A stretch of 32,000 bases of DNA from assembly GCA_021820965.1 (NCBI GenBank), contig JAKACZ010000003.1, positions 9,297-41,296 on the forward strand, read 5' to 3'. The translations under genes were made by a program, and so were the position numbers. The DNA comes from Bacillota bacterium (lineage in GTDB: Bacteria > Bacillota > Sulfobacillia > Sulfobacillales > Sulfobacillaceae). This document shows positions 4,831-23,015 of this stretch, piece after piece. The notes beneath the pieces were generated by a model. It saw only the letters and a program-made list of their open reading frames with translations. It had not been told where the DNA came from and searched no databases. Position 1 is the first letter of the stretch. Every line of letters begins with the position of its first letter.

Positions 4831-5894
4831 AACACAGAAGAGTTGTTTTCGCAACTGAACAGGGGAAAAGCACCATAGGCTGGGTAAGTTTTAAAAGGTC
4901 CACCGGGAGCGGCTCCAACGATTGGTCGCACCCGCCTGCACGCAGACACGGGTGGCACAGGGTGTCGCAGTCGGGGTGATTCGGAGCTACTGGAGACGTT
5001 AGTGCAACAGCGCTACCCTCAAATATCGCCTTGGACCAAGGGTCGTCACTTGCCTACCAATGGCTCGATCAACACGCAATACTCTGCCGTTGGCTTGCGG
5101 TATGAAGGCAGAGCTCAATCGCAAAATTCGGATACCAGATCATACGACCGCGAGTCAGTGGTAGCACGCTTGATGCGGTGGAGGCGGATGATGAGATCCA
5201 GTGCCCAGGTTTGCTGGGTGGTTTCCATGACGGGCCGGAGATCGTGTACATGGTGGACGCGTGGCAGAGGTCATGGGCGCATTGGTCGTCCGCCCATCAT
5301 ATAATGCGGTGCCGCGGTACGTCGGATTGCGTGCCTCCGCGATTCGCCACACAGCAGTAATTCCTGTTTTCTGAGTCTTCCGATGTTCGGTGCTGGCGGA
5401 CGTTCGTCGGCCTGCTGACTAAGGCGCAAAACCTACGCAGCAAGCGGCTGCTGTCACCACTTCCGGCCTGAGTTGGTAATTGTGGGTAGGGGTTGGTACT
5501 ATACGGTAAGTGTTAAACGCCCGCTAGGGCCATCAGATGCCCTAAAGACCAGCCCGAACGCCAATATTAGCCTAATCTAATCAAAATCAATCGCAGAGTG
5601 GCGCGTGTTAGCCCAAGACGCGGGATTCCAGGACGGTGTTAAATTTAAAGCCGCTGAGAGGCGACTCGATGGCGATTTTCTCCAGGATGCTAACAAAAAC
5701 GGCTATAACACGTGGGAGTCTCCAGAGAAATCATCGCGGAACTTTTTCCGATTTGTCCTTTGTCCTGCCAATCCCACAAAATCCTCGGACCTCACCACTT
5801 TCTGACCCCCCTTCTGCGAGCCCTTTGGTCCTGAACTTTGAGTCCTTGGGCCCTGACGATTCGCCTTGTCCGAACACTACGATGATTATGTGAT

Positions 5895-5910
5895 TGTGAT
5901 ATCAATCACA
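5895..5910. promoter_or_regulatory. Crp/Fnr-type box TGTGATATCAATCACA (box 1)
   Basis: TGTGA-N6-TCACA read directly, embedded in the larger imperfect palindrome 5881-5919. It lies about 20 nt upstream of the uORF ribosome-binding site and about 115 nt upstream of ctaB. Confidence 0.5.
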
Positions 5911-5930
5911 ATCGTCATCAGAGGTCAAGT

Positions 5931-6029
5931 ATGAGCGGGATCTACGGGCCCTTCTCACAAATGCCGCGGCACTGGGCCACAGCCGATGAGGTCAACGTGA
6001 TGCGGCGCCGAAAGCCGAGGTTGCCATGA
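5931..6029 (+). CDS. Small upstream ORF (32 aa) translationally coupled to ctaB
   Basis: ATG at 5931 preceded by AGAGGT with 6-nt spacing. Product: MSGIYGPFSQMPRHWATADEVNVMRRRKPRLP*. Its TGA (6027-6029) overlaps the ctaB ATG (6026) as ATGA. It falls below the track length cutoff and I recognise no homology. Confidence 0.3.
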   Translation: MSGIYGPFSQMPRHWATADEVNVMRRRKPRLP

Positions 6030-6925
6030 TAGGTGTTCACGGTGTTCACGGGTTGTCACGCAAGACGCTTCGTGCGCGCACAATTGTCTATTGGAACTTT
6101 ACCAAGCCGCGCATCTGGGCGGTTTTTGCGTTGGAAGGGTTGGCCGGCAGCATGCTGGCCAAGAGCGCTTCCGAGATTTTTCCCTGGCTCCCGGTGGTGA
6201 CCGCAGTGCTGGCGATTGCTCTAGCCGCGGCGGGGGCGGAGGCGCTGACCAACGTGCTGGATCGCAACATGGACGCAGTCATGCGTCGCACGCATACCCG
6301 ACCCTTGCCGCGCGGAACCATCACTCCAAGATCTGCTGTTGTGTTTGGCTTCGTGTGCGTGGGAGCCAGCCTGAGTCTGGGCGCTGTTTTGGGCGCGATT
6401 CCCTTGCTGTTCTTGGTCATCGGCCTGATCGACAACGTGATTATTTACAGTGCCCTGGCAAAGCGTACAACTCCCTGGAGCATCATGCTGGGTGCGGGCG
6501 CAGGCGCTATCCCGGTATGGGTCGGGTTCGCCGTGGTGCGACTGCCGATCAGCCTCAGCGGTTGGTTGCTCGGCGTGGTTGTTCTGTGCTGGATTCCGGT
6601 GCATATCTGGAGTCTAGCCTGGGCCTGCCGTGAGGATTATGCCCGGGCGGACGTGCCTATGGCACCGGTGGTGTGGTCGCCTAAGACGTTTCAACGGGCC
6701 TGGTATGCGGCCTTGGTGTTGATGCTGGGAGCAACCATGACCTTCGCCGCCGCGGCCTTAGGCCAAGTTGCCGGCCTGATCGCCGATGGTGCCGCGGCGG
6801 TGGTCGCCTTGCTGGGGGGGCAATGGGCCGTTTGGCCGACGACTAAGCATGCCCGGCTCGTATTTCAGACGGTCAATGCTTACTTGGCGGGTCTATTGCT
6901 ATTGGTGATTGTGATCCGATTGTAG
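6026..6925 (+). CDS. ctaB: Protoheme IX farnesyltransferase (heme O synthase), UbiA superfamily
   Basis: YWNFTKPRIW (the Y..LTKPRI motif), first Asp-rich motif NVLDRNMDAVMRRTHTRPLP, second motif EDYARADVPMAPVV, and about 8-9 TM helices. A GAGGT ribosome-binding site lies 5 nt upstream. Confidence 0.8.
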   Translation: MIGVHGVHGLSRKTLRARTIVYWNFTKPRIWAVFALEGLAGSMLAKSASEIFPWLPVVTAVLAIALAAAGAEALTNVLDRNMDAVMRRTHTRPLPRGTITPRSAVVFGFVCVGASLSLGAVLGAIPLLFLVIGLIDNVIIYSALAKRTTPWSIMLGAGAGAIPVWVGFAVVRLPISLSGWLLGVVVLCWIPVHIWSLAWACREDYARADVPMAPVVWSPKTFQRAWYAALVLMLGATMTFAAAALGQVAGLIADGAAAVVALLGGQWAVWPTTKHARLVFQTVNAYLAGLLLLVIVIRL

Positions 6926-8468: not shown

Positions 8469-8771
8469 TTCCTTGCGCCTAGGGAGCAGCGTCCGTCTCA
8501 GGCTAGAGCACTCCCGGCGGCTCCATGCGGCGTTGACCGTCTGATCTTTGTCAGCAGGCGGTTGGAGCTTTTTGGGCACGGGGGTTGGTCGTTAGGGGCT
8601 GAGAGCATGGGGCCTAAAGAGTCACAACAAGCCGGGCCGAAAATCGACGGATCATACTTGTCCGTATGGTTGCGTCCGTAAAACGGCCTAAACATGCGGG
8701 ACCCCCTGGCCCCCGGTTTTGGGGGAGGATGGCTCTGTTTCCAACGAGGTTTGAAGAACTATCATAAGTTT

Positions 8772-8787
8772 TGTGACGATGGTCACA
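8772..8787. promoter_or_regulatory. Crp/Fnr-type box TGTGACGATGGTCACA (box 2)
   Basis: TGTGA-N6-TCACA read directly, about 90-105 nt upstream of the Fe-S subunit start. It shares the flanks TTGTGA...TCACAATC with box 1. Confidence 0.5.
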
Positions 8788-8878
8788 ATCTTCTTTCTGC
8801 CGTGTCCCTTGGTTACCTGTGGAGACGATCGGAGCCTCACGGGAGGACACGAGACAGGCCAGGGAGGGGCGAAAAGAC

Positions 8879-9952
8879 GTGAAACCAGAACAGGGCCCCA
8901 TGTCGCGACGACGCGTCATCCGGCAATTGGCCCTCACCGCTATCAGCTTATCCGCAGCCGGAACATTGCTGCGCAGCCGCATACGGGTTCAAAGTGTACG
9001 TGCCATCGCGGCGCGGCGATGGCGCCGCTGGGCGGGTGAAGCGGCGCTTCAGCGGGACTACTACCGTACCAAACCCCGGTGGGCCAGTTGGACCGTTCCG
9101 GCCCTGAATGTGGCCGATGGGTGGTCGGAACCTCAGGCGTGGATGCCCACCATCGAAAACTCACATCATGTCTCATATATCCATGATAATTTCCAACGGC
9201 TGTTGCCCGTGACCAAGCTGCCTCATCACTGGGTCATGGTGATTGACCTTCGTAAGTGCATTGGCTGCCAGGCCTGCGTGGTGGCCTGCAAGAGTGAGAA
9301 TAACGTGCCGGTGGGAGTGTACCGGACCTGGGTACAGGTTGTCGAGACCGGGAGCATGGAGCCGAGCCTGACCGGTCCGGTCGTCACTGCTGAGGGACAG
9401 TTTGAACCGAACGTGAAACGGTACAGTTTGCCGCGACTGTGCAATCACTGTGACGCGCCGCCGTGCGTGGAGGTGTGTCCTGTGCAGGCCACGTTCAAAC
9501 GGGAGGATGGGTTGGTTCTCATCGATTATCCGAAATGTTTGGGATGCGGATACTGCATTAATGCCTGTCCCTATGATGCGCGTTTCTTCAATCCGATCCA
9601 ACAAACCGCCGACAAATGTACCTTTTGCGTACAGCGGCTGGATCGGGGGCTGTTGCCGGCGTGCGTCACCTCTTGTGTGGGCAGGGCCCGCATTTTCGGA
9701 GATCTCAACGATCCTCACAGTGCCGTATCTCGGTTAATCGCGCAATACCCCACCGTGCATTTAAAGAGCACCATGGGGACCAAACCGCAAGTCTTTTACA
9801 TCGATATGGATGGTGTGCTCGCGGAAGACGGTGCCGGCACGTTGAATACCATCTATCCGTATGCCGTCGGCACCAATACGTACGAGTACGACGATTTGAC
9901 GGGGCGGGTACTGCTTGAGACGCCGACAGGCGGAGAAAGGAGGACGACCTGA
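8879..9952 (+). CDS. Tat-signal 4x[4Fe-4S] ferredoxin-type electron-transfer subunit of a molybdoenzyme (TtrB/PsrB/NrfC-like)
   Basis: Twin-arginine motif MSRRRVIRQLALTAISLSAAG. Four Cys groups: CIGCQACVVAC, CNHCDAPPCVEVCP, CLGCGYCINACP, CTFCVQR...CVTSC. The start is ambiguous. GTG 8879 has GGGAGGGG 9 nt upstream; ATG 8900 and the track start 8819 are also possible. Confidence 0.9.
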   Translation: MKPEQGPMSRRRVIRQLALTAISLSAAGTLLRSRIRVQSVRAIAARRWRRWAGEAALQRDYYRTKPRWASWTVPALNVADGWSEPQAWMPTIENSHHVSYIHDNFQRLLPVTKLPHHWVMVIDLRKCIGCQACVVACKSENNVPVGVYRTWVQVVETGSMEPSLTGPVVTAEGQFEPNVKRYSLPRLCNHCDAPPCVEVCPVQATFKREDGLVLIDYPKCLGCGYCINACPYDARFFNPIQQTADKCTFCVQRLDRGLLPACVTSCVGRARIFGDLNDPHSAVSRLIAQYPTVHLKSTMGTKPQVFYIDMDGVLAEDGAGTLNTIYPYAVGTNTYEYDDLTGRVLLETPTGGERRTT

Positions 9953-11160
9953 TGCCACATGGGGCGTTAATTCAGTCGGGACTTGAAAACGTGTACTGGG
10001 GTCTCATGATTGTGACCTATCCCTACATCTCCGGCTTGGTGGCCGGATCGTTTGTGGTCTCATCGTTGAGTCATGTGTTTCACCAAAAGGTGTTCGACCA
10101 ATTGGCCCCTCTGGCGGTGTTGATCAGTTTTGCGCTACTCTTGGCCGCTCCGCTCACCGTGCTGGGTGATGCGCGCCAGCCCACCAATTTTCTGGAACTG
10201 CTGAGTCGGGGCCATTGGCCGTATTCCCCCATTGCATTCTTCATTTTGATTTGGTTGGCCTACATTGTGCTGATGTTGTGTGAACTCTACTTTGCCTTCC
10301 GCGCCGAAAACGTGCGGCGCGCCGCCCTCGGCGGTCCCCGCCAGCGGCTGTACCGGATCTTGGCGCTGGGCAATCGCGATCTAAGGCCCGAGGCGGCCTT
10401 GCGCGATAAACGGATCCTCTTGGTGCTTTCTAGCCTGGGCATCCTCATGGCATTTCTCTTCCATGGATACATCGGGTTCATCTTTGGCTCGACCAAAGCC
10501 CGGCCTCTCTGGGCGACCCCGCTGATGCCGGTGCTCTTCATCGTCTCTGCCATGGTATCCGGAATTGCCCTGATGTGGATCGCCTATGTGCTCACCATGC
10601 GGTACTATCGCCGACCGGTGCAAAGAGCTGTCGCCGATGGTCTGTTGCGCTACCTGGTTCTGTTCGTGCTCTTAGACCTCTATATGGATGCGGTCGACTT
10701 TTTGACCAGTGCCGTTCCCGCCTATACTCAAGGACCGACTGCTGAGGGGTTTCAGCGCATATTGCTGCATGGGCCCGATACCGGGGTCTATCTAGGGTTG
10801 CAACTGGGCGTCGGCCTGTTCGTGCCGTTATTGGTGTGGGTAATTCCCCGGTTGCGCAAATCCCTCATCGGGGGGGCCGTGATGACCGCGGCTGTTCTTA
10901 TCGGAGTGTACGCCATGCGCTGGGATGTGGTGATTGCCGGGCAGGTTCAGTCCAAGATTTCGCAAAACCTGGTCGCCGTCAAGATTCCCTGGTTTGGCTT
11001 TGATTCCATTCAGACCGTGGTGGGGGTGTTCGCGGTGGCCTTTGTGGTGTTTACGGGATTAGCGTGGCTGTTTCCTTGGAAATCATGGGAAACGCCAGCC
11101 GAATGGCAAGGAGTGGCGAACTCGCAACGGGAGTCGCTCCAAGGAGGCGAACGGGCATGA
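9952..11160 (+). CDS. NrfD/PsrC/TtrC-family integral membrane quinol-interacting subunit
   Basis: 402 aa with about 8-10 TM helices. The N-terminus WGLMIVTYPYISGLVAGSF is typical of NrfD-family proteins. The ATG overlaps the upstream TGA (TGATG at 9950-9954) and an AAGGAGG ribosome-binding site is present. Confidence 0.85.
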   Translation: MPHGALIQSGLENVYWGLMIVTYPYISGLVAGSFVVSSLSHVFHQKVFDQLAPLAVLISFALLLAAPLTVLGDARQPTNFLELLSRGHWPYSPIAFFILIWLAYIVLMLCELYFAFRAENVRRAALGGPRQRLYRILALGNRDLRPEAALRDKRILLVLSSLGILMAFLFHGYIGFIFGSTKARPLWATPLMPVLFIVSAMVSGIALMWIAYVLTMRYYRRPVQRAVADGLLRYLVLFVLLDLYMDAVDFLTSAVPAYTQGPTAEGFQRILLHGPDTGVYLGLQLGVGLFVPLLVWVIPRLRKSLIGGAVMTAAVLIGVYAMRWDVVIAGQVQSKISQNLVAVKIPWFGFDSIQTVVGVFAVAFVVFTGLAWLFPWKSWETPAEWQGVANSQRESLQGGERA

Positions 11161-14100
11161 GTAAGGACTCGGGAAAATCGTCCCTGGCTCGCGTGTCGCG
11201 GCGGGACTTTTTGAAAGGCGCCAGTTTGGCGGGCGGCGGCCTGGTGGCGGGCGGATGGGGGTTGTCGCCATGGATCGGCGATGTGTTTCATCGCCGGGGC
11301 ACATACGTCTATCCCAATCGTCCGCCGACATGGAATGGAGTAGAGACAAAATACAGCGTCTGCAAACAGTGTGGTAGCGACTGCGGGCTCGAGGCCCATG
11401 TGTTCCGCGGAGTGCTGCAAAAGCTCGACGGGAATCCATATCATCCCGCTTCGACCGAACCGCATGCCCCTTATGCCACGGCCCTCAGCACGGCTGTGGT
11501 GTGGCCAGCGCCGCATTCGCTGTGCCCCCGTGGCCAGGCCGGACGCCAGACAGTATATGACCCTTACCGGGTGACCGTGCCGCTCAAGCGCGTCGGGCCG
11601 CGCGGCTCGGACCAGTGGGAAGTGATTTCATGGCCTCAGTTGATTAGTGAGGTAGTGGACGGGGGCAGGCTATTTCACAAAGTGCCCGGGGAGTCCAGCC
11701 GGGCGGTGGCGGGCTTTGCCAATCTCTATAACGGGGGGCGGGGTCAGCGTAGTCCCATTGACTCGCGCCATCCGGATCTGGGACCCAAGACCAATGGTTT
11801 AGTGATGTATGTGGGCGAGGCGGAAGCGGGCCAAGGTCAGTTTATCAGCCGGTTTGCCGGCTCCTTCGGCACGGTCAATGTTCAAGGCAACGGGCAGATC
11901 TGCAACAATAATGTGGGAGTTTCCTTCAACCTCTCGACCTCCGGGCAAGCGGGGGAACTGCGTCCGGACGTTCTCAATGCCGAATACGTCATCTGGTTTG
12001 GGCTAAATGCCCTGGAAGCGAATTTTCCCATGCAGGCCTTGGGGCGAAAAGTCGTCGAAGCGGTGAGTGACGGACGGCTGAAGTATCACATGGTCGATGT
12101 GCGTGCTGGCAACGGCCTGATTCACGCCAGCAATCAGACCTGGGTGCGTCCCGGTGGAGACGGCGCCCTGGCCATGGGAATGGTTCGGTGGATTTTGGAA
12201 AATCAGCGGTACAATAGCCCCTATCTCAGTATTCCGCATGCCAAGGCGGCGAACGCGCACGGCGAACCGAACTATACCAATGCGGCCTGGCTGGTGGTGA
12301 GCGATGTGGCACATCCCCACAACCGGGCGTTTTTGACAGCTGCCGAAGCCGGGCTTGTGGCTCAGTCGGATCCCCGCGCCTCCGATCCGGTGGTGTGGGA
12401 CGCTACCAGTGGGAAACCGAAAATTGCTACCGAAGTCTCGAGGGCCAAGCTGTGGCCGAAAAAACCTCTGGATATGAGCCCGGTAAGCGTGGCCGGGGTG
12501 GCCACCAAAACCTCTTTTCAGGTCCTTGCGGAGGAGGCGATGCGCTACAGCTTGCCGCAATACGCGTCGATGGCGGGTACCAACCAACAGACAATTGTGC
12601 ACCTGGCCCGGGAGGTGACCAGTCATGGCCGGCGAGCTGTGGTGGACTTTTTCCGGGGGGCTGTGATGCACACCAATGGGGTGTATACGGGCCGGGCGCT
12701 GATGACGTTAAACCTACTCATCGGGAATCTCGACTGGGTGGGCGGATACATGGTGGGCGGCGGTGGAGCGGACATCCTGGGGAGTAGCCAGGGCCAGCCC
12801 TATTCGCTCGACAATTGGCCCAACATGGGTGCTGGACCCCAGGGAGTTACCATATCCCGCAATGGGACGGCCTACGAATCGACGTCATTTTACCAAGCAC
12901 GGTTGTCCCATAAAGAGTCGCCTTATCCCGCAAAACGTCCCTGGTTCCCGTTTAGCGGAGGGCTGTGGGAGGAGATGTTTGCCGGCATCTATCAGAGCTA
13001 TCCTTATCCCTGTGCCATTCTGGTGCAGCATATTGCCAATCCCGCGTGGAGTGCCCCGGGGATCGGGGGCGCCGACGATGACAACCTGCCGTGGATGCGC
13101 CTGATCAAGGACACCGCGAAGGTCCCGTTATTTATTGCGATTGACACCCAGATTTCGGAGAGTTCCCGCTATGCCGACTACATCGTGCCCGATACAACCT
13201 ATCTGGAAGGCTGGGGGTTCCCGGGCCTGCGCCCCGTGGTTCCCACCAAAACTACCGGCGTTCGGCATCCCGTCATCGAGCCTCTCACCCAAAAGACGCC
13301 CGCGGGTGAACCGATGAGCATGGAACAGTTCTTCATCGATGTGGCCAAGGCACTTCACTTACCCGGATTCGGCCCGAACGCGTTTATCGAGGGGGGCGCA
13401 CTGAATGCCCGGGAGGACTACTACTTGAAAATGGTCGCCAATGTGGCATGGGACTCGTCTTATCAAAAGCGTTCGGGCGCCAAGTTGGTTTCCCTGGGGC
13501 CAGTTCCCGACGCTTCAAGCGCCGAGGAGGAGATGGCGGTTTCGGACCTTCGTACCCGTTATCCGGCGGCGCTGAGTCAGGCAGCTTGGGCCAAAGTCGC
13601 CTATGTGCTGGCGCGCGGGGGGCGCTTTGAAGACTACCCCGTCGGATACCTGCCCAACGCAGAAAGTACGAGTCGGCTGCGTGCGTTGATCACCCGTCAG
13701 GTGCTGCGTACGGGAACGCAGCGCTGGGCCAAGGCGCCGAATCAGATCAGTCCCGAGGATCTTCTGGGAATCTATGGGCATATGCTTCCGACCTGGAGCG
13801 GTGGTTCACCGTTCCAAAACCCGTCGTGGGTGACCCACCAATTGGGGACCGGGGCGCCGTTACAGATCTATAACCCCGATCAGGCCCTGGCCATCAATGC
13901 GTTGACTGGTACCCATTTCTTGGGTACGGGAAGCTACCAGCCGCCGCAGACGATGCGGGGCCAATTGCTGACGCATCTTGACCCGTCATCCGAATTTCCC
14001 TTTGTGCTCACCACACGGAAAGAAACGGTGCAAAGCAAGGCATGGACCATTGCCGATCCCTGGCTCTTGGAGATGCTACCGGAGGCGTTTATTGACATGA

Positions 14101-14453
14101 ACCCGATCGATGCCCGTCGCCTCGGGATTCACGAAGGGGATGAGGTTCGCGTATCCTCCCGTACCTATCCCCGCGGCCTGACCGGGCGGGTTCGCTTGTT
14201 GCCCGGGGTTCGCCCCGGCGTGATCTCCTTTCCCCATGGATATGGCCACTGGCATTACGGATCCAGCAAGTGGGTCATCGACGGACGATCTTACGTCGGA
14301 GACTCGGCCCGAAACGCCCCCGTGCGGTTGAACGCCGTGATGCGGCTCGACCCTAGTTTGGCGGCCCCGGACGGGTGGACCATCGCACTGGAAGATCCGA
14401 TTGGCGGCGGGTGCGCCTATTTTGAGACGGCTGTTCGGATTCAGAAAGTCTAG
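11157..14453 (+). CDS. Molybdopterin (bis-PGD) oxidoreductase catalytic subunit, Tat-exported, TtrA-like size (1098 aa)
   Basis: ATG at 11157 overlaps the nrfD-like stop as ATGA, with an AGGAGG ribosome-binding site. Tat motif SRRDFLKGASLAGGGL. N-terminal FS0 motif CKQCGSDC...(46 aa)...LCPRG. Also GNPYHP, DPYRVTVPLKRVGPRG, and a C-terminal Molydop-binding-like barrel (...VRVSSRTY...GVISFPHGYGHW). The track start at 11064 is rejected because it overlaps nrfD by 97 nt. Confidence 0.9.
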   Translation: MSKDSGKSSLARVSRRDFLKGASLAGGGLVAGGWGLSPWIGDVFHRRGTYVYPNRPPTWNGVETKYSVCKQCGSDCGLEAHVFRGVLQKLDGNPYHPASTEPHAPYATALSTAVVWPAPHSLCPRGQAGRQTVYDPYRVTVPLKRVGPRGSDQWEVISWPQLISEVVDGGRLFHKVPGESSRAVAGFANLYNGGRGQRSPIDSRHPDLGPKTNGLVMYVGEAEAGQGQFISRFAGSFGTVNVQGNGQICNNNVGVSFNLSTSGQAGELRPDVLNAEYVIWFGLNALEANFPMQALGRKVVEAVSDGRLKYHMVDVRAGNGLIHASNQTWVRPGGDGALAMGMVRWILENQRYNSPYLSIPHAKAANAHGEPNYTNAAWLVVSDVAHPHNRAFLTAAEAGLVAQSDPRASDPVVWDATSGKPKIATEVSRAKLWPKKPLDMSPVSVAGVATKTSFQVLAEEAMRYSLPQYASMAGTNQQTIVHLAREVTSHGRRAVVDFFRGAVMHTNGVYTGRALMTLNLLIGNLDWVGGYMVGGGGADILGSSQGQPYSLDNWPNMGAGPQGVTISRNGTAYESTSFYQARLSHKESPYPAKRPWFPFSGGLWEEMFAGIYQSYPYPCAILVQHIANPAWSAPGIGGADDDNLPWMRLIKDTAKVPLFIAIDTQISESSRYADYIVPDTTYLEGWGFPGLRPVVPTKTTGVRHPVIEPLTQKTPAGEPMSMEQFFIDVAKALHLPGFGPNAFIEGGALNAREDYYLKMVANVAWDSSYQKRSGAKLVSLGPVPDASSAEEEMAVSDLRTRYPAALSQAAWAKVAYVLARGGRFEDYPVGYLPNAESTSRLRALITRQVLRTGTQRWAKAPNQISPEDLLGIYGHMLPTWSGGSPFQNPSWVTHQLGTGAPLQIYNPDQALAINALTGTHFLGTGSYQPPQTMRGQLLTHLDPSSEFPFVLTTRKETVQSKAWTIADPWLLEMLPEAFIDMNPIDARRLGIHEGDEVRVSSRTYPRGLTGRVRLLPGVRPGVISFPHGYGHWHYGSSKWVIDGRSYVGDSARNAPVRLNAVMRLDPSLAAPDGWTIALEDPIGGGCAYFETAVRIQKV

Positions 14454-14457
14454 CTAG

Positions 14458-15105
14458 GTGACGGAATCAGGGAACGGGGGCAAATCCATGAAAACCGAGA
14501 CAATGGTCTGGTCGGCGGACGAGATGGCGGCGGGATATGATTATCTAGCGTCCGCGTTTCTTTACGGACCGGTGCGCCTGGACCCCACCGTGCAAGCCAC
14601 CTGGGGAGAACGCGTGGCTAAAAGAAGCGCCGACTTGGGCGACTTATGGACTACGGTGACCGGAGCATTGGCCCACGAGGTCGACGAGCAGCGAGCGATG
14701 GTGGATTTTCACGAATGCTTGGAGGTTCCCCTGCCGGGACGCTACGTAGCGCCGTACGCCTCCGTGTACCTGGACAAACCCGTCACGCTGTGGGGCCCCA
14801 CGACTTGGCGAGTGCTGCAGTGGTACGAGCAAGGAGAGCTGGAGTGGCATCGGTTCCGCCATGTGGCGGCGCCGGACCATATGGGGGTCGAATGGGCGTT
14901 TTTGGCGGAACTGAGCGCCGACTTGAGGCCGGAAGCCAATGCATTGCGCAGAACATTTATCGCGGAGCACGTGTTGCGCTGGGTCCCCGCGTTTCTCACC
15001 CGCCTCGAGAGCGCGGCTCGCAGCCCCTATTATCCGGCTCTGGCGCATTGGGGGATCGCATGGATCGAGGCAACAGGTACCGCGGAACAGGGGGGAGCGG
15101 AATAG
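14458..15105 (+). CDS. TorD/DmsD/NarJ-family redox-enzyme maturation chaperone
   Basis: Pattern YDYLASAFLYGP...PLPGRYVAPYASVYL...WGP...YEQGELEW......APDHMGVEWAFLAEL...FIAEHVLRWVPAF. The gene lies directly after the catalytic subunit. The start may instead be ATG 14488. Confidence 0.8.
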   Translation: MTESGNGGKSMKTETMVWSADEMAAGYDYLASAFLYGPVRLDPTVQATWGERVAKRSADLGDLWTTVTGALAHEVDEQRAMVDFHECLEVPLPGRYVAPYASVYLDKPVTLWGPTTWRVLQWYEQGELEWHRFRHVAAPDHMGVEWAFLAELSADLRPEANALRRTFIAEHVLRWVPAFLTRLESAARSPYYPALAHWGIAWIEATGTAEQGGAE

Positions 15106-15179
15106 GCTTTTCTCCGGAAGGTGGGAATAGTGCCGCTGTCCGCTGCACGATGATCGGAACATCGGGATGAAAGGGGGCG

Positions 15180-15485
15180 ATGACCGTGGTCGGTGATTTG
15201 TTGAGTCCCGTGCATTTGGTGGTGTTGGGCATCATCGGGCTGTTGGTGTTTGGTCCCAAACGACTGCCCGAGTTGGGTTCCGGGTTGGGACAGGCGCTTC
15301 GGGGATTTAAGGAGGCGGTCATTGGGCAAAAACTGTCTGAACGTTCGGCCGACCCTGAGGATGCCCACTCAGAGGCGCTTAAGAAAGCCTCGCCGGGCAC
15401 CATTTCGGTGACGGTTGAGGGGTCGGACACCTCGGGGATTGAGGCGGATCCGCGTCTCTGGAAGAAAGCAGGCAGGGGGCAATGA
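15180..15485 (+). CDS. tatA: Twin-arginine translocase TatA/E-family protein
   Basis: N-terminal TM helix plus hinge: LVVLGIIGLLVFGPKRLPELGSGLGQALRGFKEA. AAGGGGG ribosome-binding site. Confidence 0.9.
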   Translation: MTVVGDLLSPVHLVVLGIIGLLVFGPKRLPELGSGLGQALRGFKEAVIGQKLSERSADPEDAHSEALKKASPGTISVTVEGSDTSGIEADPRLWKKAGRGQ

Positions 15486-16210
15486 CCGCGAAGGAGGGAG
15501 GCGAGCCCCCGTTTCCAGTATCCCCGGCGCCGAAACGCACGATGAGTCGCCCTGACGCCGAGGATACCGTCGTGGTGGCGGTGCGAGCAGCCCGAGATGT
15601 GGATCGCGAAGGTTTACGCTGCGTGCTTGGCGCTATTGCGGGGATTCGCTGTGTTGAACCAGAGGAGCTGAGCGACGGCAAGGCTCCTCTGGTGACTGTG
15701 GTGGCAAGTCCCTCGCTGCGATGGGTTCAGGAAGAAGTGAGCCACTGGAGTACGCGGGGACCGATGGTGGCGATCACCGATGCAAGCCAGGGGTGGACGA
15801 CTACTTGCTTGATGGGTGCGGGAGCCCAAGTGGTGTTGGATTACAGCGACCCGGTGGCACGAATCGTAGCCACGGTCCAAGGCCTAGCGTGGCAGTCCCA
15901 CGTGGCGGTTCCAGCTATGGTCACCCGGTGGCGGGCGGCCAGTACGGAACGAAAGGCGTCGGAAACAAACCTTACCCCTATGGATCAGCGAATTTGGCAA
16001 GCCGTGGCTCAAGGTCGAAGCAATGTGGAAATTGCCGAGCGGCTAGGTATCAAACTCACGACCGTTCGCGACGGAATCACCCGAATCTATAAGCAACTTG
16101 GGGTCCGCCATCGGGCGGCGGCCGCAGCCTTATGGTGGCGGCAACACGAGGCGGAAGAGAGCGACCGCGGGCCACCCGGGCGGGGCGGCGGCGGAGGCGG
16201 CGAGCGGTGA
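15482..16210 (+). CDS. LuxR/GerE-type HTH regulator with degenerate (pseudo-)receiver domain
   Basis: The C-terminus LTPMDQRIWQAVAQGRSNVEIAERLGIKLTTVRDGITRIYKQLGV is a GerE HTH. The N-terminal ~120 aa has a receiver-like alternation of beta and alpha segments but non-acidic residues at the expected Asp positions (VVVAVRAARD..., ...LVTVVASPS). Its ATG overlaps the tatA stop (ATGA). Confidence 0.75.
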   Translation: MTAKEGGEPPFPVSPAPKRTMSRPDAEDTVVVAVRAARDVDREGLRCVLGAIAGIRCVEPEELSDGKAPLVTVVASPSLRWVQEEVSHWSTRGPMVAITDASQGWTTTCLMGAGAQVVLDYSDPVARIVATVQGLAWQSHVAVPAMVTRWRAASTERKASETNLTPMDQRIWQAVAQGRSNVEIAERLGIKLTTVRDGITRIYKQLGVRHRAAAAALWWRQHEAEESDRGPPGRGGGGGGER

Positions 16211-16419: not shown

Positions 16420-17127
16420 ATGAGCCACGATGTGGAATATTCGCGGGCAGGAGCACCTTTTGCGGAGATTGCCTCACGTTATTGGGCCATCAGCAACCGT
16501 TTGGCAATGGGGCAGTTCGGAAACTGGCACCGGGCTGCTTTGAACGCGATGGCTCTCGATTCCTCGGTGAGCATCCTTGACGTCGGGTGCGGCACCGGGC
16601 AGTTCCTTCGTTCGGTCGCGCAGAGCACCGGGCGAGGAGACCTTCTTACCGGACTAGACCCGGAACCAGCCATGTTAGCCGAGGCCCGACGCTTGGCCTC
16701 TTCAGACGCACAGAGAAGATGCATTCGGTGGGTGCGGGGATTTGGTGAGTGCTTACCTTTTCCCGATGCGACATTCGATCGGGTGACCGCCCAATTTTCC
16801 TTGCGCAATATGAATGACTGGCACCGAGGCCTGTCGGAGATGATTCGTGTTCTCCGACCTTCGGGGCGCCTGATCGTACTGGAAATGGTACGGCCGGAGA
16901 CGCTAAAGGGATGGTTGGGGGTTCACTATCTAGAGGCCGTGACCCGGCTGCCGGGAATCACGCCTTTCCACGTTTTGCCCAAAACCGTACCGGGATTCGA
17001 ATCCGCTCGGAACGTGATGACCGTGTTAAAAGCGTCGTCGGTGAACGCGTGCACGTGTCGTAAATGGGTGGGAGGGCTGGTAGTGCTGATCGTCGCAGGG
17101 GCGGCTATCAGTGCCAATGAAGTGTAG
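16420..17127 (+). CDS. Class I SAM-dependent methyltransferase, UbiE/MenG-like
   Basis: SAM motif ILDVGCGTGQF, then LPFPDATFDRVTAQFSLRNMNDW..GLSEMIRVLRPSGRLIVLE. This pattern matches demethylmenaquinone/ubiquinone C-methyltransferases. GAGGGGG ribosome-binding site. Confidence 0.75.
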   Translation: MSHDVEYSRAGAPFAEIASRYWAISNRLAMGQFGNWHRAALNAMALDSSVSILDVGCGTGQFLRSVAQSTGRGDLLTGLDPEPAMLAEARRLASSDAQRRCIRWVRGFGECLPFPDATFDRVTAQFSLRNMNDWHRGLSEMIRVLRPSGRLIVLEMVRPETLKGWLGVHYLEAVTRLPGITPFHVLPKTVPGFESARNVMTVLKASSVNACTCRKWVGGLVVLIVAGAAISANEV

Positions 17128-17349: not shown

Positions 17350-17585
17350 CCTTTCAACGTCTTAGGGGCTCTGCACGCCATCACCCACCCATGAGGTGAT
17401 TACCGTCGCCAACACCACCTATATCAACAGTGAGAGTATGGTGGGCGTGCTTCGGCAGCTGGCCGCTCCCCCATTACCGTGGTCTTAGACAATGCCCGGG
17501 ACCAGGGAAACAAGGATGTCATGGCGGAGGCGAAACGCTCCGGATTACCCCCAAGACCCGTCAAAGTTGTGGAAAAGGTTGCTAT
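17350..17585 (+). pseudogene. IS630-family transposase remnant (at least 2 frameshifts, internal deletion)
   Basis: Pieces in three frames: PFNVLGALHAITHP / EVITVANTTYINSESMVGVLRQLAA / ITVVLDNARDQGNKDVMAEAKRSG. These correspond to the ...NVLGALN..T.E.. and (I)T.VLDNAR DDE segment of IS630 transposases. Confidence 0.55.
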
Positions 17586-18010
17586 GAGTGGTATTCCCAT
17601 CTGACGGCGGGCTTCTTTTATTTTACCTGATACGATTATGCCATGCGTACAGAACTTGCGACGATTGGTGGTCGAGCTGTCCCCGATTAGGCAGATCGGC
17701 TCTACATCAGGCTGGCGCAGCCAGCCCGTGGCGAAGCCTGATGGCGCCCCATCATTATGCGGGATTTCGAGGATTGGTCTGCGAATCGCTCTATTATGTA
17801 GCGACGGTCGATGACGTCTCGGTCGCCCTCCTGGGGGTGGGCGGTGGCCGCCTGGATGTGTCGTCCGCGCGACTAATGTCGATGATCGACTGCAGTTTGA
17901 TCATGGGGATCCTCCTCGACGAGAGTGGCATTCACTCCTCTCTTCGACATCGGGGCACTGTTAACATAAAACTGGGATGGGTAAGAGGTCGCACCGAAAA
18001 CGAACAAAGG

Positions 18011-18442
18011 TCAGAACTGCACTTGGTGTGGCTTGTCATGCTTTACCCGCAGACGGCTAAAGTGTTTATGGTTCCAGGTGACAACATAAGGATGAGAACT
18101 CGAGCGAGCCTTCGCGGCAATATATGCATCAATGTAGTCCACGTGCTGTTGGTCGTAGTCTCTGAGCGCTTCCAAGACTAACGACTTTTCTTCCATATCC
18201 ATGCCTTTCGCATTGATAATGTTGATCAAGGCTTGTGCGATGTCTGGAGGATTGTGGCCATACGGGCTTTCGAGCACCCAACAACATTCGGCAATCACGA
18301 TAGAAGGAATTTTCAACACCACTTGGCCTTGGTCCACCATTTGCACCAACTGTTTAACCTCTTCAACCATCTTGGGTGAGTCACCGGTAATAATTCGGAG
18401 CAAGACATTGGTATCGGCTCAAACGGTGAGCGGGCTATTCAC
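18011..18442 (-). pseudogene. vapC: PIN-domain (VapC-type) toxin gene with in-frame TGA at codon 8
   Basis: Reading from the GTG at 18442, which overlaps the antitoxin stop, gives M N S P L T V * A D T N V L L R I I T G D... TGA is at 18419-18421. The track ORF restarts at TTG 18403, downstream of the conserved DTN Asp. The rest is PIN-like (...IAECCWVLES...VDYIDAYIAAKA...VVTWNHKHF). Confidence 0.7.
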
Positions 18443-18704
18443 GGATATCTTCCGGATACCGCAGCTGAGATTTGGTTGCATAGACGTACTTTCGGTATTC
18501 ACTGGGGTCTTGGTAATTTCGAGTGGCTGCTAAGATGCCTACAAGCGACGCCAGCCTCTTTCTTTTGACCACTTGCAATGTTACGGTATCGTCGTCCGCG
18601 ACCGTAAATATAATTTGGTCTCCTTGCTCGGCCCCCAACTTGTGCCGAATTTCCGCGGGAATCACGGTTTGTCCCTTACGGGACAATGTACTTAAGGCTC
18701 TCAT
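18435..18704 (-). CDS. vapB: AbrB/MazE/SpoVT-family antitoxin (VapB-like)
   Basis: ATG at 18704 with an AAGGAGG ribosome-binding site 6 nt upstream. MRALSTLSRKGQTVIPAEIRHKLGAEQGDQIIFTV..DDTVTLQ is the swapped-hairpin SpoVT/AbrB motif. The track start at 18860 is rejected because it has no ribosome-binding site and the extension is AT-rich. Confidence 0.8.
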   Translation of the reverse strand: MRALSTLSRKGQTVIPAEIRHKLGAEQGDQIIFTVADDDTVTLQVVKRKRLASLVGILAATRNYQDPSEYRKYVYATKSQLRYPEDIRE

Positions 18705-18964
18705 GGGTGCCTCCTTAGGATCATCGTTTTGCTTCATTATAGGTCTTACCTCGCCTTCAGTAAAATCTGTGTTTTTAGTCTTACTCTTTAAGATATCCAT
18801 TATCGGCGAAAAATAGACTTCCTCAGCGTAGTTTGCAATAATGACGCAGTTTGCTGGCATCTATATTCTGAGAAAATTTTGGGCCCGTCACACCCTGGCG
18901 CACAGGACCATTGCGGCATGGTTTGCCAGAACGAATTAGTCGATAAAGGTGGGGATGAGCCGGG

Positions 18965-19864
18965 CTATGCTCCGTACCGATGCGCTGATGCTTGAATACA
19001 GGCCACCAATAATCTGGAGGCAATGCCGGTCTTCAAGTGCTGGCGATTAAAACGATAGGCGAACCCTTCCAGATACAATTGGCGCCGGGCGCGTCCGCGC
19101 CCGTGATACGTGCCGTCAACGAACGTTTTCACCAGACTGATGACCGTGTTGACCCAATGGAAGACCACCGGGGCCTCCGGATCGGTATTGAGCGTCACAT
19201 CATGGTTCGCCCCATGTTGCTGGGCTGCGGTGGCATAACACTGCCGCGCTGTCGCTCCGCCACACGCCCTGGTTCTCCACCCGCCGCCGCAAGACGTCTA
19301 ACACCGTGTCCGTTTGTAGGTTGTTGGGCTCGGCTTGGAGAAACACGTAACGGGGATGGTCCTGAGCATTCAAACTCACCCCGATCACCACCGAGTCTTG
19401 ATCCGTGCCGCGGCCTCGTTTGCCGGTTCCGTGACTGACACCGCCAAAATAGGCGTCATCCAGTTCGACGAGACCGCCGAGTTGATACCGGGCATTGCGG
19501 TCCTGCATGGCTTGTTGAATCTTGTGGTGCATGAGCCAGGCGGCATCGTAGCGGAGGTCAAGCTCGCGGCTTAACGCGAGGGCGGATTTCCCACCTTTAT
19601 CGACAGCGATTAGGAAGATTGCGAGAAACCACACTCGCAGGGGCAATTTCGTCCGATGAAAGATGGTCCCGGCCGTGACGGACGACTGATGGTGGCCGGC
19701 GGTGCATTCATACCATGGGGCGGTCCGGTTGGACCGCTGAATCGTCCAGTACGTGGTCCCCTGGCGTTTGGGGCACACGAAACCATCCGGCCATCGTTGT
19801 TTGAAGAGGTAATCATGGCAGGCTTTGTCCGTTGCAAACCGATCTCCGTATTATTTCGGTTCAT
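18965..19864 (-). pseudogene. IS1595-family (ISXO2-like) transposase pseudogene, at least 2 frameshifts
   Basis: Pieces: ...DRFATDKACHDYLFKQRWPDGFVCPKRQGTTYW...YECTAGHHQSSVTAGTIFHRTKLPLRVWFLAIFLIAVDKGGKSALALSRELDLRYDAAWLMHHKIQQAM...VELDDAYFGG...GKRGRGT, then in another frame ...WVNTVISLVKTFVDGTYHGRGRARRQLYLEGFAYRFNRQHL. The zinc-ribbon CPxCG has degraded to CPKRQG. Confidence 0.75.
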
Positions 19865-20024
19865 GTGTCTGATAAGACGTGTAACCTTAGCCGATGATCG
19901 GGAAGTCGCAATACCTCTGGCATGGTCTCCGACTTGCAAGCACACGCAGTTGAGTGGCGTGAGGCGGGGCAATGGGTTGGATTAGCGCTTAACGCCCTGG
20001 CAGGGGCGTACGCTCAATCTTGGC

Positions 20025-21272
20025 TCACCGACGGAATCCGAACGCGGGTCGGCACAAGAGACCCACCCAACTACCCATCAATGCGAAGAGAAACCATTCC
20101 CACCCGTGCAGGCTAAAAGACGCAATGCCGGAGAAGTACGCCCCAATGTTGCAGCCGAAGGCAATCCGCGCACCGTAGCCCATTAGGGCACCTCCCCCAA
20201 TCAGGGCGACCCACATCCGGCCGGGGATTCGTGGCAATTTCCAATTGGAAAACCCTCCTGCCAGAGAGGCGGCTAAAAAGGCACCCAAGATGACACCAAT
20301 GTCGAGGACGGTGGTCGCATCATGTAGGATGCCATGCCTCAAGGCCATTGCGTTGGCTGGCACTTGCCAGTAGGTCCAATGGGCTACCGGGATCCCCAGT
20401 GCCTGAGCGATTTTCGCGCCCCAGAGGGCGAAGGCAAACGTGACACCCCATGGCTTGCCGGACAGCAGCAGAACGAGCCAGTTTCCCACCGCGAGCACCA
20501 GACCTCCTCCGATCCAAGACCACGGTCCTTTGAACAAAATGTGCGGATCGAACCGACCGGCATGATTCCGGTGGAGTGCAAGAGCGCTAAAGAGCGGCTC
20601 GACATGTCCGTATCGGCGCTGCTCCAACCTCCAGGCCAGCAAAAAGACGATGGCTAAGAGAAGTCCCTCGACCATGAACCCTCCTACCGCACCGAACGAC
20701 GCGACGAACGAGATGGGAGAAAAATGGGGAGTAGCCATCCACCAGGGAAAATTCACGCTGCCTGCGACCGAACCCACGACAAACCCCGCTATGGCCGCCA
20801 CACCACGCAAGTCACCTCCACCTGTGTGATACAAGGTCCCGGAGGCGCACCCGTCGGCCAGTTGCATACCAATGCCAAAAAGAAACGAACCTACCGCGAC
20901 AGATATGCCGACAGGAAATACATATCCGCCTACGGTGTGACCGAATGCCTGTCCATGCGTCATCAACGGCAAGAACAACAGATTTGCCATCAAGAACATG
21001 ACCATTTGGGCTCGAATTCCGATCCCCCGTTGGTCTCGAAGAAAATTGCGAAAGGAAGAAGTAAACCCATAACGAGCGAAATATAACGCGGCGCCCAACA
21101 TGCCAGCCACTAAGAAAAGCCCGACTTGAGTAAGCGACTCGGTTTGCCAGAGGAGTAATGACCCTGCGAAAAATATAACACCCGAGACGACTACGAGACC
21201 TCGATTGGAGGGGGCCGTCTGCCCAACCCGGGCGGTCGGTTCGTCCAACGCAACGTGGGTAAAGTCAACCAT
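20025..21272 (-). CDS. YeeE/YedE-family sulfur-compound (thiosulfate-type) transporter
   Basis: Two sulfur-transport repeats with the conserved Cys motifs GMQLADGCASGTLY and ARIAFGCNIGAYFSG, and about 10-12 TM helices. I prefer the ATG at 21272 (ribosome-binding site GAGGGGGA) over 21290. Confidence 0.85.
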   Translation of the reverse strand: MVDFTHVALDEPTARVGQTAPSNRGLVVVSGVIFFAGSLLLWQTESLTQVGLFLVAGMLGAALYFARYGFTSSFRNFLRDQRGIGIRAQMVMFLMANLLFLPLMTHGQAFGHTVGGYVFPVGISVAVGSFLFGIGMQLADGCASGTLYHTGGGDLRGVAAIAGFVVGSVAGSVNFPWWMATPHFSPISFVASFGAVGGFMVEGLLLAIVFLLAWRLEQRRYGHVEPLFSALALHRNHAGRFDPHILFKGPWSWIGGGLVLAVGNWLVLLLSGKPWGVTFAFALWGAKIAQALGIPVAHWTYWQVPANAMALRHGILHDATTVLDIGVILGAFLAASLAGGFSNWKLPRIPGRMWVALIGGGALMGYGARIAFGCNIGAYFSGIASFSLHGWEWFLFALMGSWVGLLCRPAFGFRR

Positions 21273-21617
21273 GATTGTTCCCCCTCGCATGCTACCAACA
21301 TTATGAAGTAACTGCCTTACTCACGATCCTTCTATGTTCAATCCCCGTCATTTCAGGCACAGCATCCCCGGGTTGTTTTCTAGATTGGCATGGTATCAAG
21401 GGCCGGGTCTTTCGCCTAGCACAACAATACCCTATATAACCTATAGAATCAATAGGATATCTAACCATTTATTATAGCTGCTAGATGGGTTTTTTAAACT
21501 GTTGGTTCCGCCCCCAAAGGCAGGCCATCCTTTAGAGCGTCGTATGCCGACGCGGGTGGAGGGATAACGCAGGCGAAACAGACCGGTGGGAAAAATGCGG
21601 GCACTTGGATCGGGCAA

Positions 21618-22022
21618 GTGGCCTTCCGGACTTTAGGCTATTTCGAACATGAAGGTCGCCGCTGCATGAGTGGCTCAGGGTATCTATATATAGTTCTGTC
21701 GGCAGAAGTCAAGCAATTCCTATTTGACCGGACGCATCTCGGAGACGTGGCCGAATTTGCATCGTTGGTGGCCCGTCGTCAGGCGCTTGGACTCATCGTG
21801 GCTTTAGATTTTGCCGAAGGCGTTCGCGAAGAACTCGTAGAAATGGGACTTGAGCCTGTGGCCAAGAAAGACTTGTTGGAACGAGTGCGGTTGTGGGATC
21901 CGTTAAAACAACGTATCGCCATCCAGGCATTGATCTACTACACGCAATACAAAGAACAGAATTCCGCACTGCTGAATAGAGTTCGCGCATTTTTCAAGAT
22001 GTATGTCCAACTAAGTAGGTAA
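21618..22022 (+). CDS. Hypothetical protein (no recognisable family)
   Basis: 134-aa ORF in a lower-GC stretch. The alternative ATG at 21666 has a GAAGGT ribosome-binding site. The only support is ORF length and the absence of a competing ORF. Confidence 0.35.
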   Translation: MAFRTLGYFEHEGRRCMSGSGYLYIVLSAEVKQFLFDRTHLGDVAEFASLVARRQALGLIVALDFAEGVREELVEMGLEPVAKKDLLERVRLWDPLKQRIAIQALIYYTQYKEQNSALLNRVRAFFKMYVQLSR

Positions 22023-22172
22023 TGGGGCATATCTCAAGCATTGTTCAGCTAACGGGGGCGAAAATCCCATAGGGCGAAGTATAAATGCTGCACAAAAATG
22101 CGATATAGGACCACTTTTTGTTGAGGGGAAATGAACATAAACACTTATTGTGATGAAACACGAAGAAAGCAC

Positions 22173-22203
22173 TTGATCCTGACGTAACGTCAGGTTGTAG
22201 GAT
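22173..22203 (+). promoter_or_regulatory. MerR-type promoter: -35 TTGATC, 19-bp spacer carrying the palindrome CCTGACGT-A-ACGTCAGG, -10 TAGGAT
   Basis: Read directly: TTGATC at 22173-22178, spacer at 22179-22197 (19 nt), TAGGAT at 22198-22203, perfect 8-bp arms at 22178-22194. It lies 39 nt upstream of the merR-family start. Confidence 0.65.
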
Positions 22204-22241
22204 GAACTTGCCGACAAAAACAATGTGCACGAAACGAGGGG

Positions 22242-22979: not shown

Positions 22980-23015
22980 CAACCATCTGTAAGATACTGG
23001 ACTATCGACAGCGGG

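Follow-up and report, generated by a model that had tools for sequence, protein, structure and literature searches.

The 32,000-nt stretch of contig JAKACZ010000003.1 analysed here (the window, meaning the whole stretch) carries a six-gene operon on the + strand (8879/8900-16210) that encodes a molybdoenzyme of the tetrathionate reductase-like (Ttr-like) family. We report that the predicted substrate pocket of its catalytic subunit, the query in all comparisons below, appears to have been remodelled in a small sub-lineage of eight sequence clusters. This remodelled pocket is, as judged from sequence, the new point of the locus; acidophilic Firmicutes were already known to have Ttr-type operons of this kind, chaperone and TatA included.

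In metagenomes, the label tetrathionate reductase is routinely given to Ttr-like genes, from which sulfur cycling is then inferred, yet some Ttr-like homologues reduce arsenate or selenate instead of tetrathionate. In the lineage described here, which is small and under strong purifying selection, it is exactly the arsenic-type residues of the pocket that have been replaced. Positions 221, 245, 253/254 and 963, together with a natural pair of paralogues, provide a handle on substrate choice in the family, and they advise caution in that ttrA matches in acid-mine metagenomes are not proof of tetrathionate respiration.

The catalytic subunit keeps the four cysteines of the FS0 iron-sulfur cluster (C69, C72, C76 and C123) and the molybdenum-ligand Cys249. 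In a profile alignment to the arsenate reductase ArrA (6cz7), G164-R165 of ArrA corresponds to G220-E221 of the query, H189 to N245, C193 to C249 and H197/K198 to V253/G254. The roles of ArrA H189 and K198 are reportedly those described by Glasser et al. in 2018; the role of R165 is confirmed in a recent study (PMC12949373). The pattern GR...HxxxC....H (or with a final Y) was found in 47/47 and 19/19 canonical members of the acidophile clade, in 20/22 sequences of the proteobacterial/TtrA group and in 62/63 of an outer group, and the sub-lineage of the query reads GE...NxxxC....G (S in one member). The replacements are R221E, H245N, HH253/254VG and R963W, the last within the domain-IV motif HSKSRT, for which the query has QSKAWT. 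The canonical, proteobacterial and outer groups each conserve R221, H245 and R963 in at least about 94% of their sequences; the same positions are E, N and W in all eight members of the sub-lineage. Enteric TtrA reads NT...HxxxC....R and has T at both arginine positions (221 and 963). No more than 21 positions combine at least 90% conservation in the canonical clade with a different fixed residue in the sub-lineage, and 11 of them lie at 221 or within 244-269. The ligand loop, QGNGQICNNNVG, is identical in seven of the eight members; that of enteric TtrA is GAHGAYCGLAYR.

Pairwise ratios of nonsynonymous to synonymous substitution (dN/dS) were 0.07-0.08 for the comparisons with unsaturated dS, namely window-L089 and L001-L089 (L-numbers denote genomic loci of relatives and P-numbers relative proteins; the window-L001 pair was saturated), and the protein is thus under strong constraint. 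Two metagenome-assembled genomes (MAGs) hold more than the query type: WH4.bin11 has L001 (query type) and L002 (canonical motif), and FK_Sedi_A_Bin.158 has L028 (query type) and the more distant L022, which is partial and leaves the motif region uncovered. The presence of both types in two MAGs points to a diverged paralogue and not to a replacement. A candidate for the canonical paralogue in the MAG of the window itself, P0058, was discarded, as this similarly labelled protein belongs to a different assembly. Neighbouring sub-lineages bear other motifs (DAICDLNRM). Separately, three sisters of the sub-lineage, L021 (9878-13072), P0082 and P0084, have Lys or Arg at the position of the molybdenum-ligand Cys and no twin-arginine motif but retain the four FS0 cysteines, and L021 stands without Fe-S or NrfD genes beside it. 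The three may be cytoplasmic derivatives that lack the cofactor.

The Gly-Arg pair that contains ArrA R165 has been reported in all arsenic-metabolising enzymes, Ttr-like ones included, and as absent from true Ttr (PMC12949373). In the majority of the Ttr-like set analysed here (L012, L009, L010, L002 and most of L001-L080) the pocket reads Gly-Arg / His(-4) / Cys / His-His. This is also the pattern of the Sulfobacillus enzymes that bear a tetrathionate reductase annotation, and enteric TtrA is the exception. Either the Gly-Arg criterion or the tetrathionate reductase annotations may need re-examination.

The placement of the query within the Ttr-like family was assessed by model scores and by phylogeny. 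Against NCBIfam models the catalytic subunit scored 581 bits with TtrA, 144 with PhsA, 116 with DmsA/YnfE and 86 with ArrA; TtrA and TtrB were the best models by a wide margin, and the family affinity put forward in the original prediction was thereby upheld. The 581 bits are, however, one third of the cut-off of the TtrA equivalog (NF011567, 1750 bits). All non-enteric members scored reached 530-760 bits on this model, which indicates that the NCBI equivalog covers the enteric enzyme only. Given the score far under the cut-off, the position in a separate sister clade and an identity of 32%, the sequence is best described as Ttr-like and not as a TtrA orthologue.

A neighbour-joining tree of 188 non-redundant sequences (964 columns, 100 bootstraps, rooted on E. 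coli DmsA) placed the query within a clade of 101 sequences with a bootstrap of 100. This clade is sister to a group that holds Salmonella-type TtrA and a proteobacterial set (bootstrap 69), and outside the two lies another large group, made up of uncultured lineages. The selenate reductase subunit SrdA was not returned by name in a homologue search seeded with the Firmicute relative P0091, from which Desulfitobacterium-type proteins came back. No Mesobacillus or Pyrobaculum locus was present in the best 80 of 586 relatives (species-representative genomes), an indirect sign of a distance beyond about 31-33% identity.

An identical protein has been deposited under a Thermaerobacter sp. MAG label, and a cluster of 76% identity contains one from a Sulfobacillus benefaciens MAG, in agreement with the Firmicute host first proposed. 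Relatives of at least 44% identity belong nearly all either to MAGs whose isolate names suggest acid-mine or tailings samples, the habitat being taken from these names and not from metadata, or to Acidithiobacillus sulfuriphilus, Alicyclobacillus, Acididesulfobacillus acetoxydans and Sulfobacillus.

The best solved relatives are ArrAB (6cz7, profile 4e-54) and PsrABC (2vpw, 5e-55), no Ttr structure having been solved. ArrAB and PsrABC share the fold family and the position of the Cys ligand with the query but have an A subunit of about 765-815 aa and the gene order A-B or A-B-C. The features of the Cys-ligated Psr/Arr/Ttr branch are all present in the window (FS0 motif, Cys ligand, four-cluster B subunit and NrfD anchor). 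The locus departs from the Psr/Phs type in gene order (B-C-A and not A-B-C), in the length of A (1098 aa and not about 750 aa) and in its PhsA score of 144 bits.

A 2026 study lists as Ttr hallmarks the BCA order, two twin-arginine translocation (Tat) leaders and a nine-helix cofactor-less anchor (PMC12949373; criteria from Hensel 1999 and Rothery 2008). Of the features that this study uses, the B-C-A order, Tat leaders on A and B and the absence of Gly-Arg were all found in the window. According to the same source only two tetrathionate reductases are proven, and the lineage of TtrA, SrdA and alternative Arr also holds selenate and arsenate reductases (PMC7331816, PMC12949373). In acidophilic Firmicutes, Justice et al. 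(2014) described putative tetrathionate reductases of Sulfobacillus that cluster with the Salmonella branch and have Tat signals on the first two subunits (PMC4378227), and Guo et al. (2016) described the order tatA-ttrB-ttrC-ttrA-ttrD-tatC in S. acidophilus TPY, strongly up-regulated in Fe(II)-grown versus S0-grown cells (PMC5114278). The latter layout was also seen in L100. The suggestion that the enzyme could represent an uncharacterised clade was half right, since putative Ttr operons of the wider clade had been reported in Sulfobacillus in 2014 and 2016 by these two studies.

The closest of these described systems is the S. acidophilus TPY operon (TPY_3698-3703), which falls in the same 101-sequence clade; identity is about 51% with a Sulfobacillus sp. 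locus, L012. The Sulfobacillus operons share with the window the B-C-A order, both Tat leaders, an operon-borne TatA and TorD-type chaperone, and the extension of B described below. They differ in having tatA upstream and tatC downstream, whereas the window has tatA downstream, no tatC and a LuxR regulator, and in the size of A (about 1040-1055 aa against 1098 aa). The Sulfobacillus type keeps GR...HxxxC...HH, whereas the window has GE...NxxxC...VG together with R963W.

For the enteric enzyme, the annotated ttrRS-ttrBCA genes on Citrobacter plasmid pM92-1 (L099) were used as reference and their order was checked directly. Shared features are the B-C-A order, Tat leaders on A and B, an NrfD-type anchor (the characterised TtrC has no known cofactor), an A subunit of about 1000-1100 aa, the FS0 motif, the Cys ligand (Cys249 being Cys257 of the plasmid TtrA) and the absence of both the Gly-Arg and domain-IV arginines. 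Identities to the enteric proteins are 32% for A (nearly full length), 55% for B (ferredoxin core) and 24% for C (213 aa, N-terminal half). The enteric locus has the TtrSR two-component system and neither a TorD-type chaperone nor TatA, whereas the window has an orphan LuxR-type protein and both of these genes. Relative to the enteric proteins, B of the window has an N-terminal extension of about 70 aa and A an insertion of about 60 residues, and the ligand loops differ.

Among the arsenate and selenate reductases of the lineage, the Ttr-like arsenate reductases of Pyrobaculum aerophilum and Anaeromyxobacter sp. PSR-1 have the same overall architecture but, according to the literature, carry the Gly-Arg pair that the query lacks. 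SrdBCA of Bacillus/Mesobacillus selenatarsenatis comes from a Firmicute host and belongs to the TtrA/SrdA/alternative-Arr lineage; it was absent from the best 80 genomic loci. Its gene order, as reported by Kuroda et al. in 2011, is said to be B-C-A. A further cluster was noted on the Salmonella IncHI2 plasmid pN17S347-1 (L081, 5016-10411), where TtrB-like, membrane-protein, TtrA-like (1008 aa) and small-protein genes adjoin arsRDABC. It is annotated only as a molybdopterin-dependent oxidoreductase and has similar counterparts on Citrobacter, Enterobacter and E. coli plasmids; from its sequence it is a candidate plasmid-borne Ttr-like arsenate reductase. Its A subunit shares 37% identity with the query, more than enteric TtrA does, and the Gly-Arg pair was seen in it directly; the cluster stands beside arsRDABC, whereas the query has no ars neighbours. 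A wider link between ars genes and the relatives was dropped after BLAST of the IncHI2 Ars proteins against all loci gave only scattered ArsR-family matches.

The operon itself was confirmed as six same-strand genes, and every open reading frame (ORF) and junction that had been claimed could be read from the sequence. The first gene (8879..9952, +) encodes a TtrB-like electron-transfer Fe-S subunit (Pfam Fer4_11, 6e-27; TtrB, 251 bits against a cut-off of 416). Its start at GTG 8879 is plausible, with GGGAGGGG about 10 nt upstream and with PEQxP before the RRR motif kept in L001; the alternative ATG 8900 is the choice of public gene calls. The stop TGA 9950-9952 shares bases with the next start, ATG 9952, in the TGATG at 9950-9954, which opens the gene for an NrfD/TtrC-type membrane anchor of 402 aa (9952..11160, +; Pfam NrfD, 3e-36, and hydropathy scan). 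An ATGA at 11157-11160 (stop 11158-11160, start ATG 11157) joins the latter to the gene for the catalytic subunit of 1098 aa, which binds the molybdenum-bis(pyranopterin guanine dinucleotide) cofactor (Mo-bisPGD) according to its Pfam domains (11157..14453, +; Molybdop_Fe4S4, Molybdopterin and Molydop_binding). After its stop TAG 14451-14453 and a gap of 4 nt, a TorD/DmsD/NarJ-family chaperone (TtrD-like, Tat-proofreading; Pfam Nitrate_red_del, 3e-16; NCBIfam TorD, 3e-12) begins at GTG 14458 (14458..15105, +), the public gene calls choosing ATG 14488. A TatA/E subunit of 101 aa with one transmembrane helix follows (15180..15485, +; Pfam TatA_B_E, 1e-16; TIGR01411, 56 bits against a cut-off of 53.9), its ATG 15180 preceded by a GGGGG Shine-Dalgarno sequence. 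In the ATGA at 15482-15485 the TGA of tatA shares bases with ATG 15482 of the last gene, for a LuxR/GerE helix-turn-helix regulator (15482..16210, +; Pfam GerE, 3e-9). The original prediction also holds for the B-C-A order, for the Tat leader on each exported subunit, and for the size class.

The Fe-S subunit contains exactly 16 Cys, arranged as four cluster motifs that suffice to ligate four [4Fe-4S] clusters, and a Tat leader, MSRRRVIRQL, recognised by motif only and followed by a hydrophobic stretch. The leader of the catalytic subunit, SRRDFLKG, gave a TIGR01409 match of 26.9 bits (cut-off 16.7). Two additions appear from the alignments to be clade-specific. The mature Fe-S protein has an N-terminal extension of about 70 aa (residues ~35-110; window 8900-9230) with the conserved motif PxWxxW...LNVxDGW...HDxFxR; the extension lies outside the region that aligns with enteric TtrB and is missing from the proteobacterial TtrB-like protein of L081. 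The other addition is in the catalytic subunit, where about 60 residues are inserted by comparison with enteric TtrA, at ~825-885 (window 13630-13810). The anchor has about nine hydrophobic helices in a crude hydropathy scan. The chaperone gene follows the catalytic gene in L001-L005, L008, L022, L025, L089 and L098, and tatA is kept in the modules of L001, L089 and L098. Regulator homologues occupy the same position in these last three loci at 21-25% identity. The match of the regulator to NarL is confined to positions 118-214; its N-terminal domain of about 150 aa, conceivably a degenerate receiver domain, has no family match and a single-sequence structure model there was unusable (predicted local distance difference test, pLDDT, about 30). 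No gene for a partner kinase was found among the annotated ORFs of the window.

Upstream of the operon, a consensus scan (9/12) gave a promoter-like site of TTTCCA, a 16-nt spacer and TATCAT (8738..8765, +), a call that is weak alone. A perfect palindrome, TTGTGAC-GATG-GTCACAA (8771..8788), lies 6 nt past the -10-like TATCAT and 91 nt before GTG 8879, and the coordinate 8772 from which the original prediction started falls on this palindrome and on no coding feature. The palindrome constitutes a Rex-operator or Fnr-Crp-type box that matches both the Rex operator consensus TTGTGAANNNNTTCACAA (PMC5355995) and the Fnr/Crp core TGTGA-N6-TCACA. The window contains two exact matches to TTGTGA-N6-TCACAA, and none occurred in any of 100 shuffles. 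The second, also a perfect palindrome (TTGTGAT-ATCA-ATCACAA, 5894-5911), is about 115 nt upstream of a heme-O-synthase-like gene, and two boxes of the same type suggest a shared Rex/Fnr-type regulon in the host genome. A box placed over the putative promoter, weakly called as this is, fits a repressor better than an activator. A Rex- or Fnr-type protein at the palindrome and the LuxR-type regulator of the operon would together probably tie expression to redox or oxygen status.

In two relatives of 75-76% identity a similar box has a different setting. In L001 (4410-4600) and L089 (6151-6363) it stands just after a TGTGATATAAT extended -10 and directly before a conserved ORF of 60-62 aa that is CxxC/zinc-ribbon-like. 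The interval of about 1.3 kb between this small ORF and the Fe-S gene held no convincing ORF, and neither the leader of the window operon nor these gaps gave an Rfam match at the gathering score, whether to the molybdenum-cofactor riboswitch or to another RNA.

Taken as a whole, the operon very probably encodes a Tat-exported, membrane-anchored, quinol-linked Mo-bisPGD oxidoreductase that works at the outer face of the membrane. By analogy with the Psr, Arr and Ttr systems, the chaperone would hold the signal peptide of the A subunit until the cofactor has been inserted, and A and B would leave the cell folded via Tat and dock on the anchor at the outer face. The anchor would oxidise menaquinol, electrons would run through the four clusters of B and then FS0 of A to molybdenum, and there a soluble acceptor outside the cell would be reduced. 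The enzyme would be the protein of a small derived paralogue lineage whose pocket was rebuilt with the loss of two arginines that enteric TtrA also lacks.

For the substrate, tetrathionate or another polythionate is offered tentatively as the best single guess, on the basis of the architecture, the TtrA-like loss of both arginines and the acid-mine habitat. Tetrathionate is a stable, soluble sulfur intermediate in acid-mine settings, and the tetrathionate/thiosulfate couple stands at +198 mV. The candidates of the original prediction centred on sulfur compounds; the lineage also holds the selenate and arsenate reductases cited above. The accompanying caveat that the substrate is not readable from the sequence was correct, and it applies more strongly than could then have been known.

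A number of observations weigh against this assignment and against parts of the scheme around it. TtrA keeps H245 and an R at +5 from the Cys where the query has N and G, and the ligand loop of the query has no basic residue at all beside the acidic E221, which is odd for the binding of a dianion. We infer from the ArrA alignment that E221, N245, V253/G254 and W963 line the pocket. The only functional data in the 101-sequence clade are the S. acidophilus transcripts, which come from an operon of the canonical type (PMC5114278). The tree is a distance tree built without SrdA and the archaeal and Anaeromyxobacter arsenate reductases, and the sister relation of the clade to TtrA appears in it as moderately supported (bootstrap 69). 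As regards regulation, neither L098, a relative of 79% identity, nor L097 has the Rex-like box ahead of the Fe-S gene, and in L001 and L089 it sits 1.3-1.5 kb upstream, ahead of the small ORF; on this comparison the box is claimed for the window operon only and does not appear to be conserved ahead of the operon in relatives.

It is nearly as probable that the same machine and topology would serve a new substrate outside the classical oxyanions of the family, namely a neutral or weakly charged acceptor of acidic mine waters such as elemental sulfur or polysulfanes, an S- or N-oxide or a protonated metalloid species, or that a substrate is oxidised instead. The predicted pocket shifts from cationic to neutral or acidic, with R221, H245, H253/H254 and R963 lost and Glu221, an Asn-rich loop and Trp963 gained, and the 11 of 21 differently fixed positions cluster around the molybdenum ligand. 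The strong purifying selection on the query type is in keeping with a new substrate, its co-occurrence with another paralogue in single MAGs speaks for a role that is not redundant, neighbouring sub-lineages have novel motifs (DAICDLNRM) or have lost the Cys, and catalytic versatility is on record for the Ttr-like family (PMC10100899, PMC12949373). Nothing positive favours any particular alternative, however; the gene neighbourhoods of the relatives differ and give no consistent hint, and since true TtrA is also without both arginines, their loss alone leaves tetrathionate possible. It is possible, though less likely than not, that the sub-lineage is a functionally new respiratory molybdoenzyme of Ttr architecture, with a rebuilt pocket and a substrate unassigned to any member of the dimethyl sulfoxide reductase family. 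In that case it would go back to a duplicated copy of the canonical acidophile enzyme in Firmicutes of the Sulfobacillus kind from acid mine environments.

An arsenate substrate is disfavoured by the sequence, and a Ttr-like arsenate reductase of the Pyrobaculum or Anaeromyxobacter PSR-1 type, or a selenate reductase of the SrdBCA type of Bacillus selenatarsenatis, is unlikely. The Ttr-like family does include such enzymes, mine environments are arsenic-rich, genes for an ArsR-type regulator and a metal-ATPase lie near group-C relatives, and the Firmicute SrdBCA reportedly has the same B-C-A order. Against this, the Gly-Arg reported as strictly conserved in all arsenic-metabolising enzymes is Gly-Glu in the query and in 8/8 of the sub-lineage, no ars genes occur in the window or beside the close relatives, and the best 80 of the 586 relatives include no Mesobacillus or Pyrobaculum locus.

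Operation in the oxidative direction, for instance from thiosulfate (or another donor) to tetrathionate in an acidophile that oxidises sulfur or iron and would pass the electrons to its quinones, is improbable. Relatives are found in sulfur- and iron-oxidising acidophiles (Sulfobacillus and Acidithiobacillus sulfuriphilus) and the canonical-type operon of S. acidophilus is strongly up in aerobic Fe(II)-grown compared with S0-grown cells, but electrons from thiosulfate, at +198 mV, are not easily passed to quinones (PMC12949373), a Rex/Fnr-type box over the promoter fits induction under acceptor limitation, and no characterised Ttr-type enzyme is known to work oxidatively. A decaying or non-catalytic paralogue, serving as a scaffold like the cofactor-less QrcB- and ActB-type subunits, is highly improbable: universally conserved pocket residues are gone and the immediate sisters L021, P0082 and P0084 have K/R at the molybdenum-ligand Cys and no Tat motif, but Cys249, the four FS0 cysteines, both Tat leaders, the chaperone and TatA are all retained in the window, dN/dS is 0.07-0.08 and the replacement motif is identical in 7/8 members.

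The genes for the Fe-S, NrfD, molybdenum, TorD, TatA and LuxR proteins occur in the same order in L001, L089 and L098, whose A subunits are 75-79% identical to the query. L089 is flanked by MMPL transporter, heme-oxygenase-like and glycosyltransferase genes, with a similar-looking ORF layout in L001, and L098 by genes for an Opp-type ATP-binding cassette transporter. The recurrence of one module amid mutually unrelated flanks supports a portable six-gene unit, and the self-sufficient module of the original prediction was borne out by it. The further proposal that the operon is island-borne was supported in part only. The module does recur with differing flanks; no boundaries were found, in that the window has no tRNA gene, an integrase and flanking repeats were not found, and the GC content of the operon (0.58-0.62) equals that of its upstream flank. 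GC dips to about 0.48-0.53 only outside the operon, at 17.5-19 kb and 20.5-24 kb. Apart from the differing flanks, only the toxin-antitoxin genes and insertion-sequence remnants downstream hint at mobility.

Downstream of the operon, a UbiE/MenG-like class I methyltransferase gene (16420-17127, +; TIGR01934, 119 bits against a cut-off of 158) was noted. Homologues of 26% identity stand beside canonical-type paralogues in L002 (14045-14896, -) and L022 (2910-3758, -), and the gene is not in the module of L001, L089 or L098. The low-GC patch (17500-26511; 0.48-0.53) contains a PIN/MazE toxin-antitoxin pair (18011-18860, -), an IS1595 transposase fragment (19200-19778, -), a YeeE/YedE-type sulfur or selenium transporter (20025-21290, -), a MerR/TipA regulator (22242-22979, +) and a DDE_3 insertion sequence with 28-nt inverted repeats at its ends (25069-26511). 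The YeeE-like transporter was considered as a part of the system and rejected, as it lies on the opposite strand past the toxin-antitoxin genes and insertion-sequence debris and has no TusA partner.

Upstream of the operon, a heme-O-synthase-like UbiA protein (6026-6925, +; TIGR01473, 199 bits against a cut-off of 210) is followed by a protein of 484-493 aa that has 11-12 transmembrane helices and matches no Pfam or NCBIfam family (6945/6972-8426, +). A link of the operon to quinone biosynthesis through the flanking UbiA- and UbiE-type genes was not retained, given that the UbiA protein is heme-O-synthase-like and part of an operon-independent pair and that the methyltransferase is missing from the modules of relatives. 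The pair is kept in contigs that are Firmicute-like or from Acidimicrobiales (L092, L094) and lack the molybdoenzyme operon. The second protein has only 37 homologue clusters among 5.8 billion proteins and invariant histidines at H56, H208, H210 and H375. Its AlphaFold model is confident (pLDDT 84, predicted template modelling score 0.88) and best matches subunit I of heme-copper oxidases and nitric oxide reductases, with TM-scores of 0.46-0.59; on the strength of this model the protein may be a very divergent member of the oxidase superfamily.

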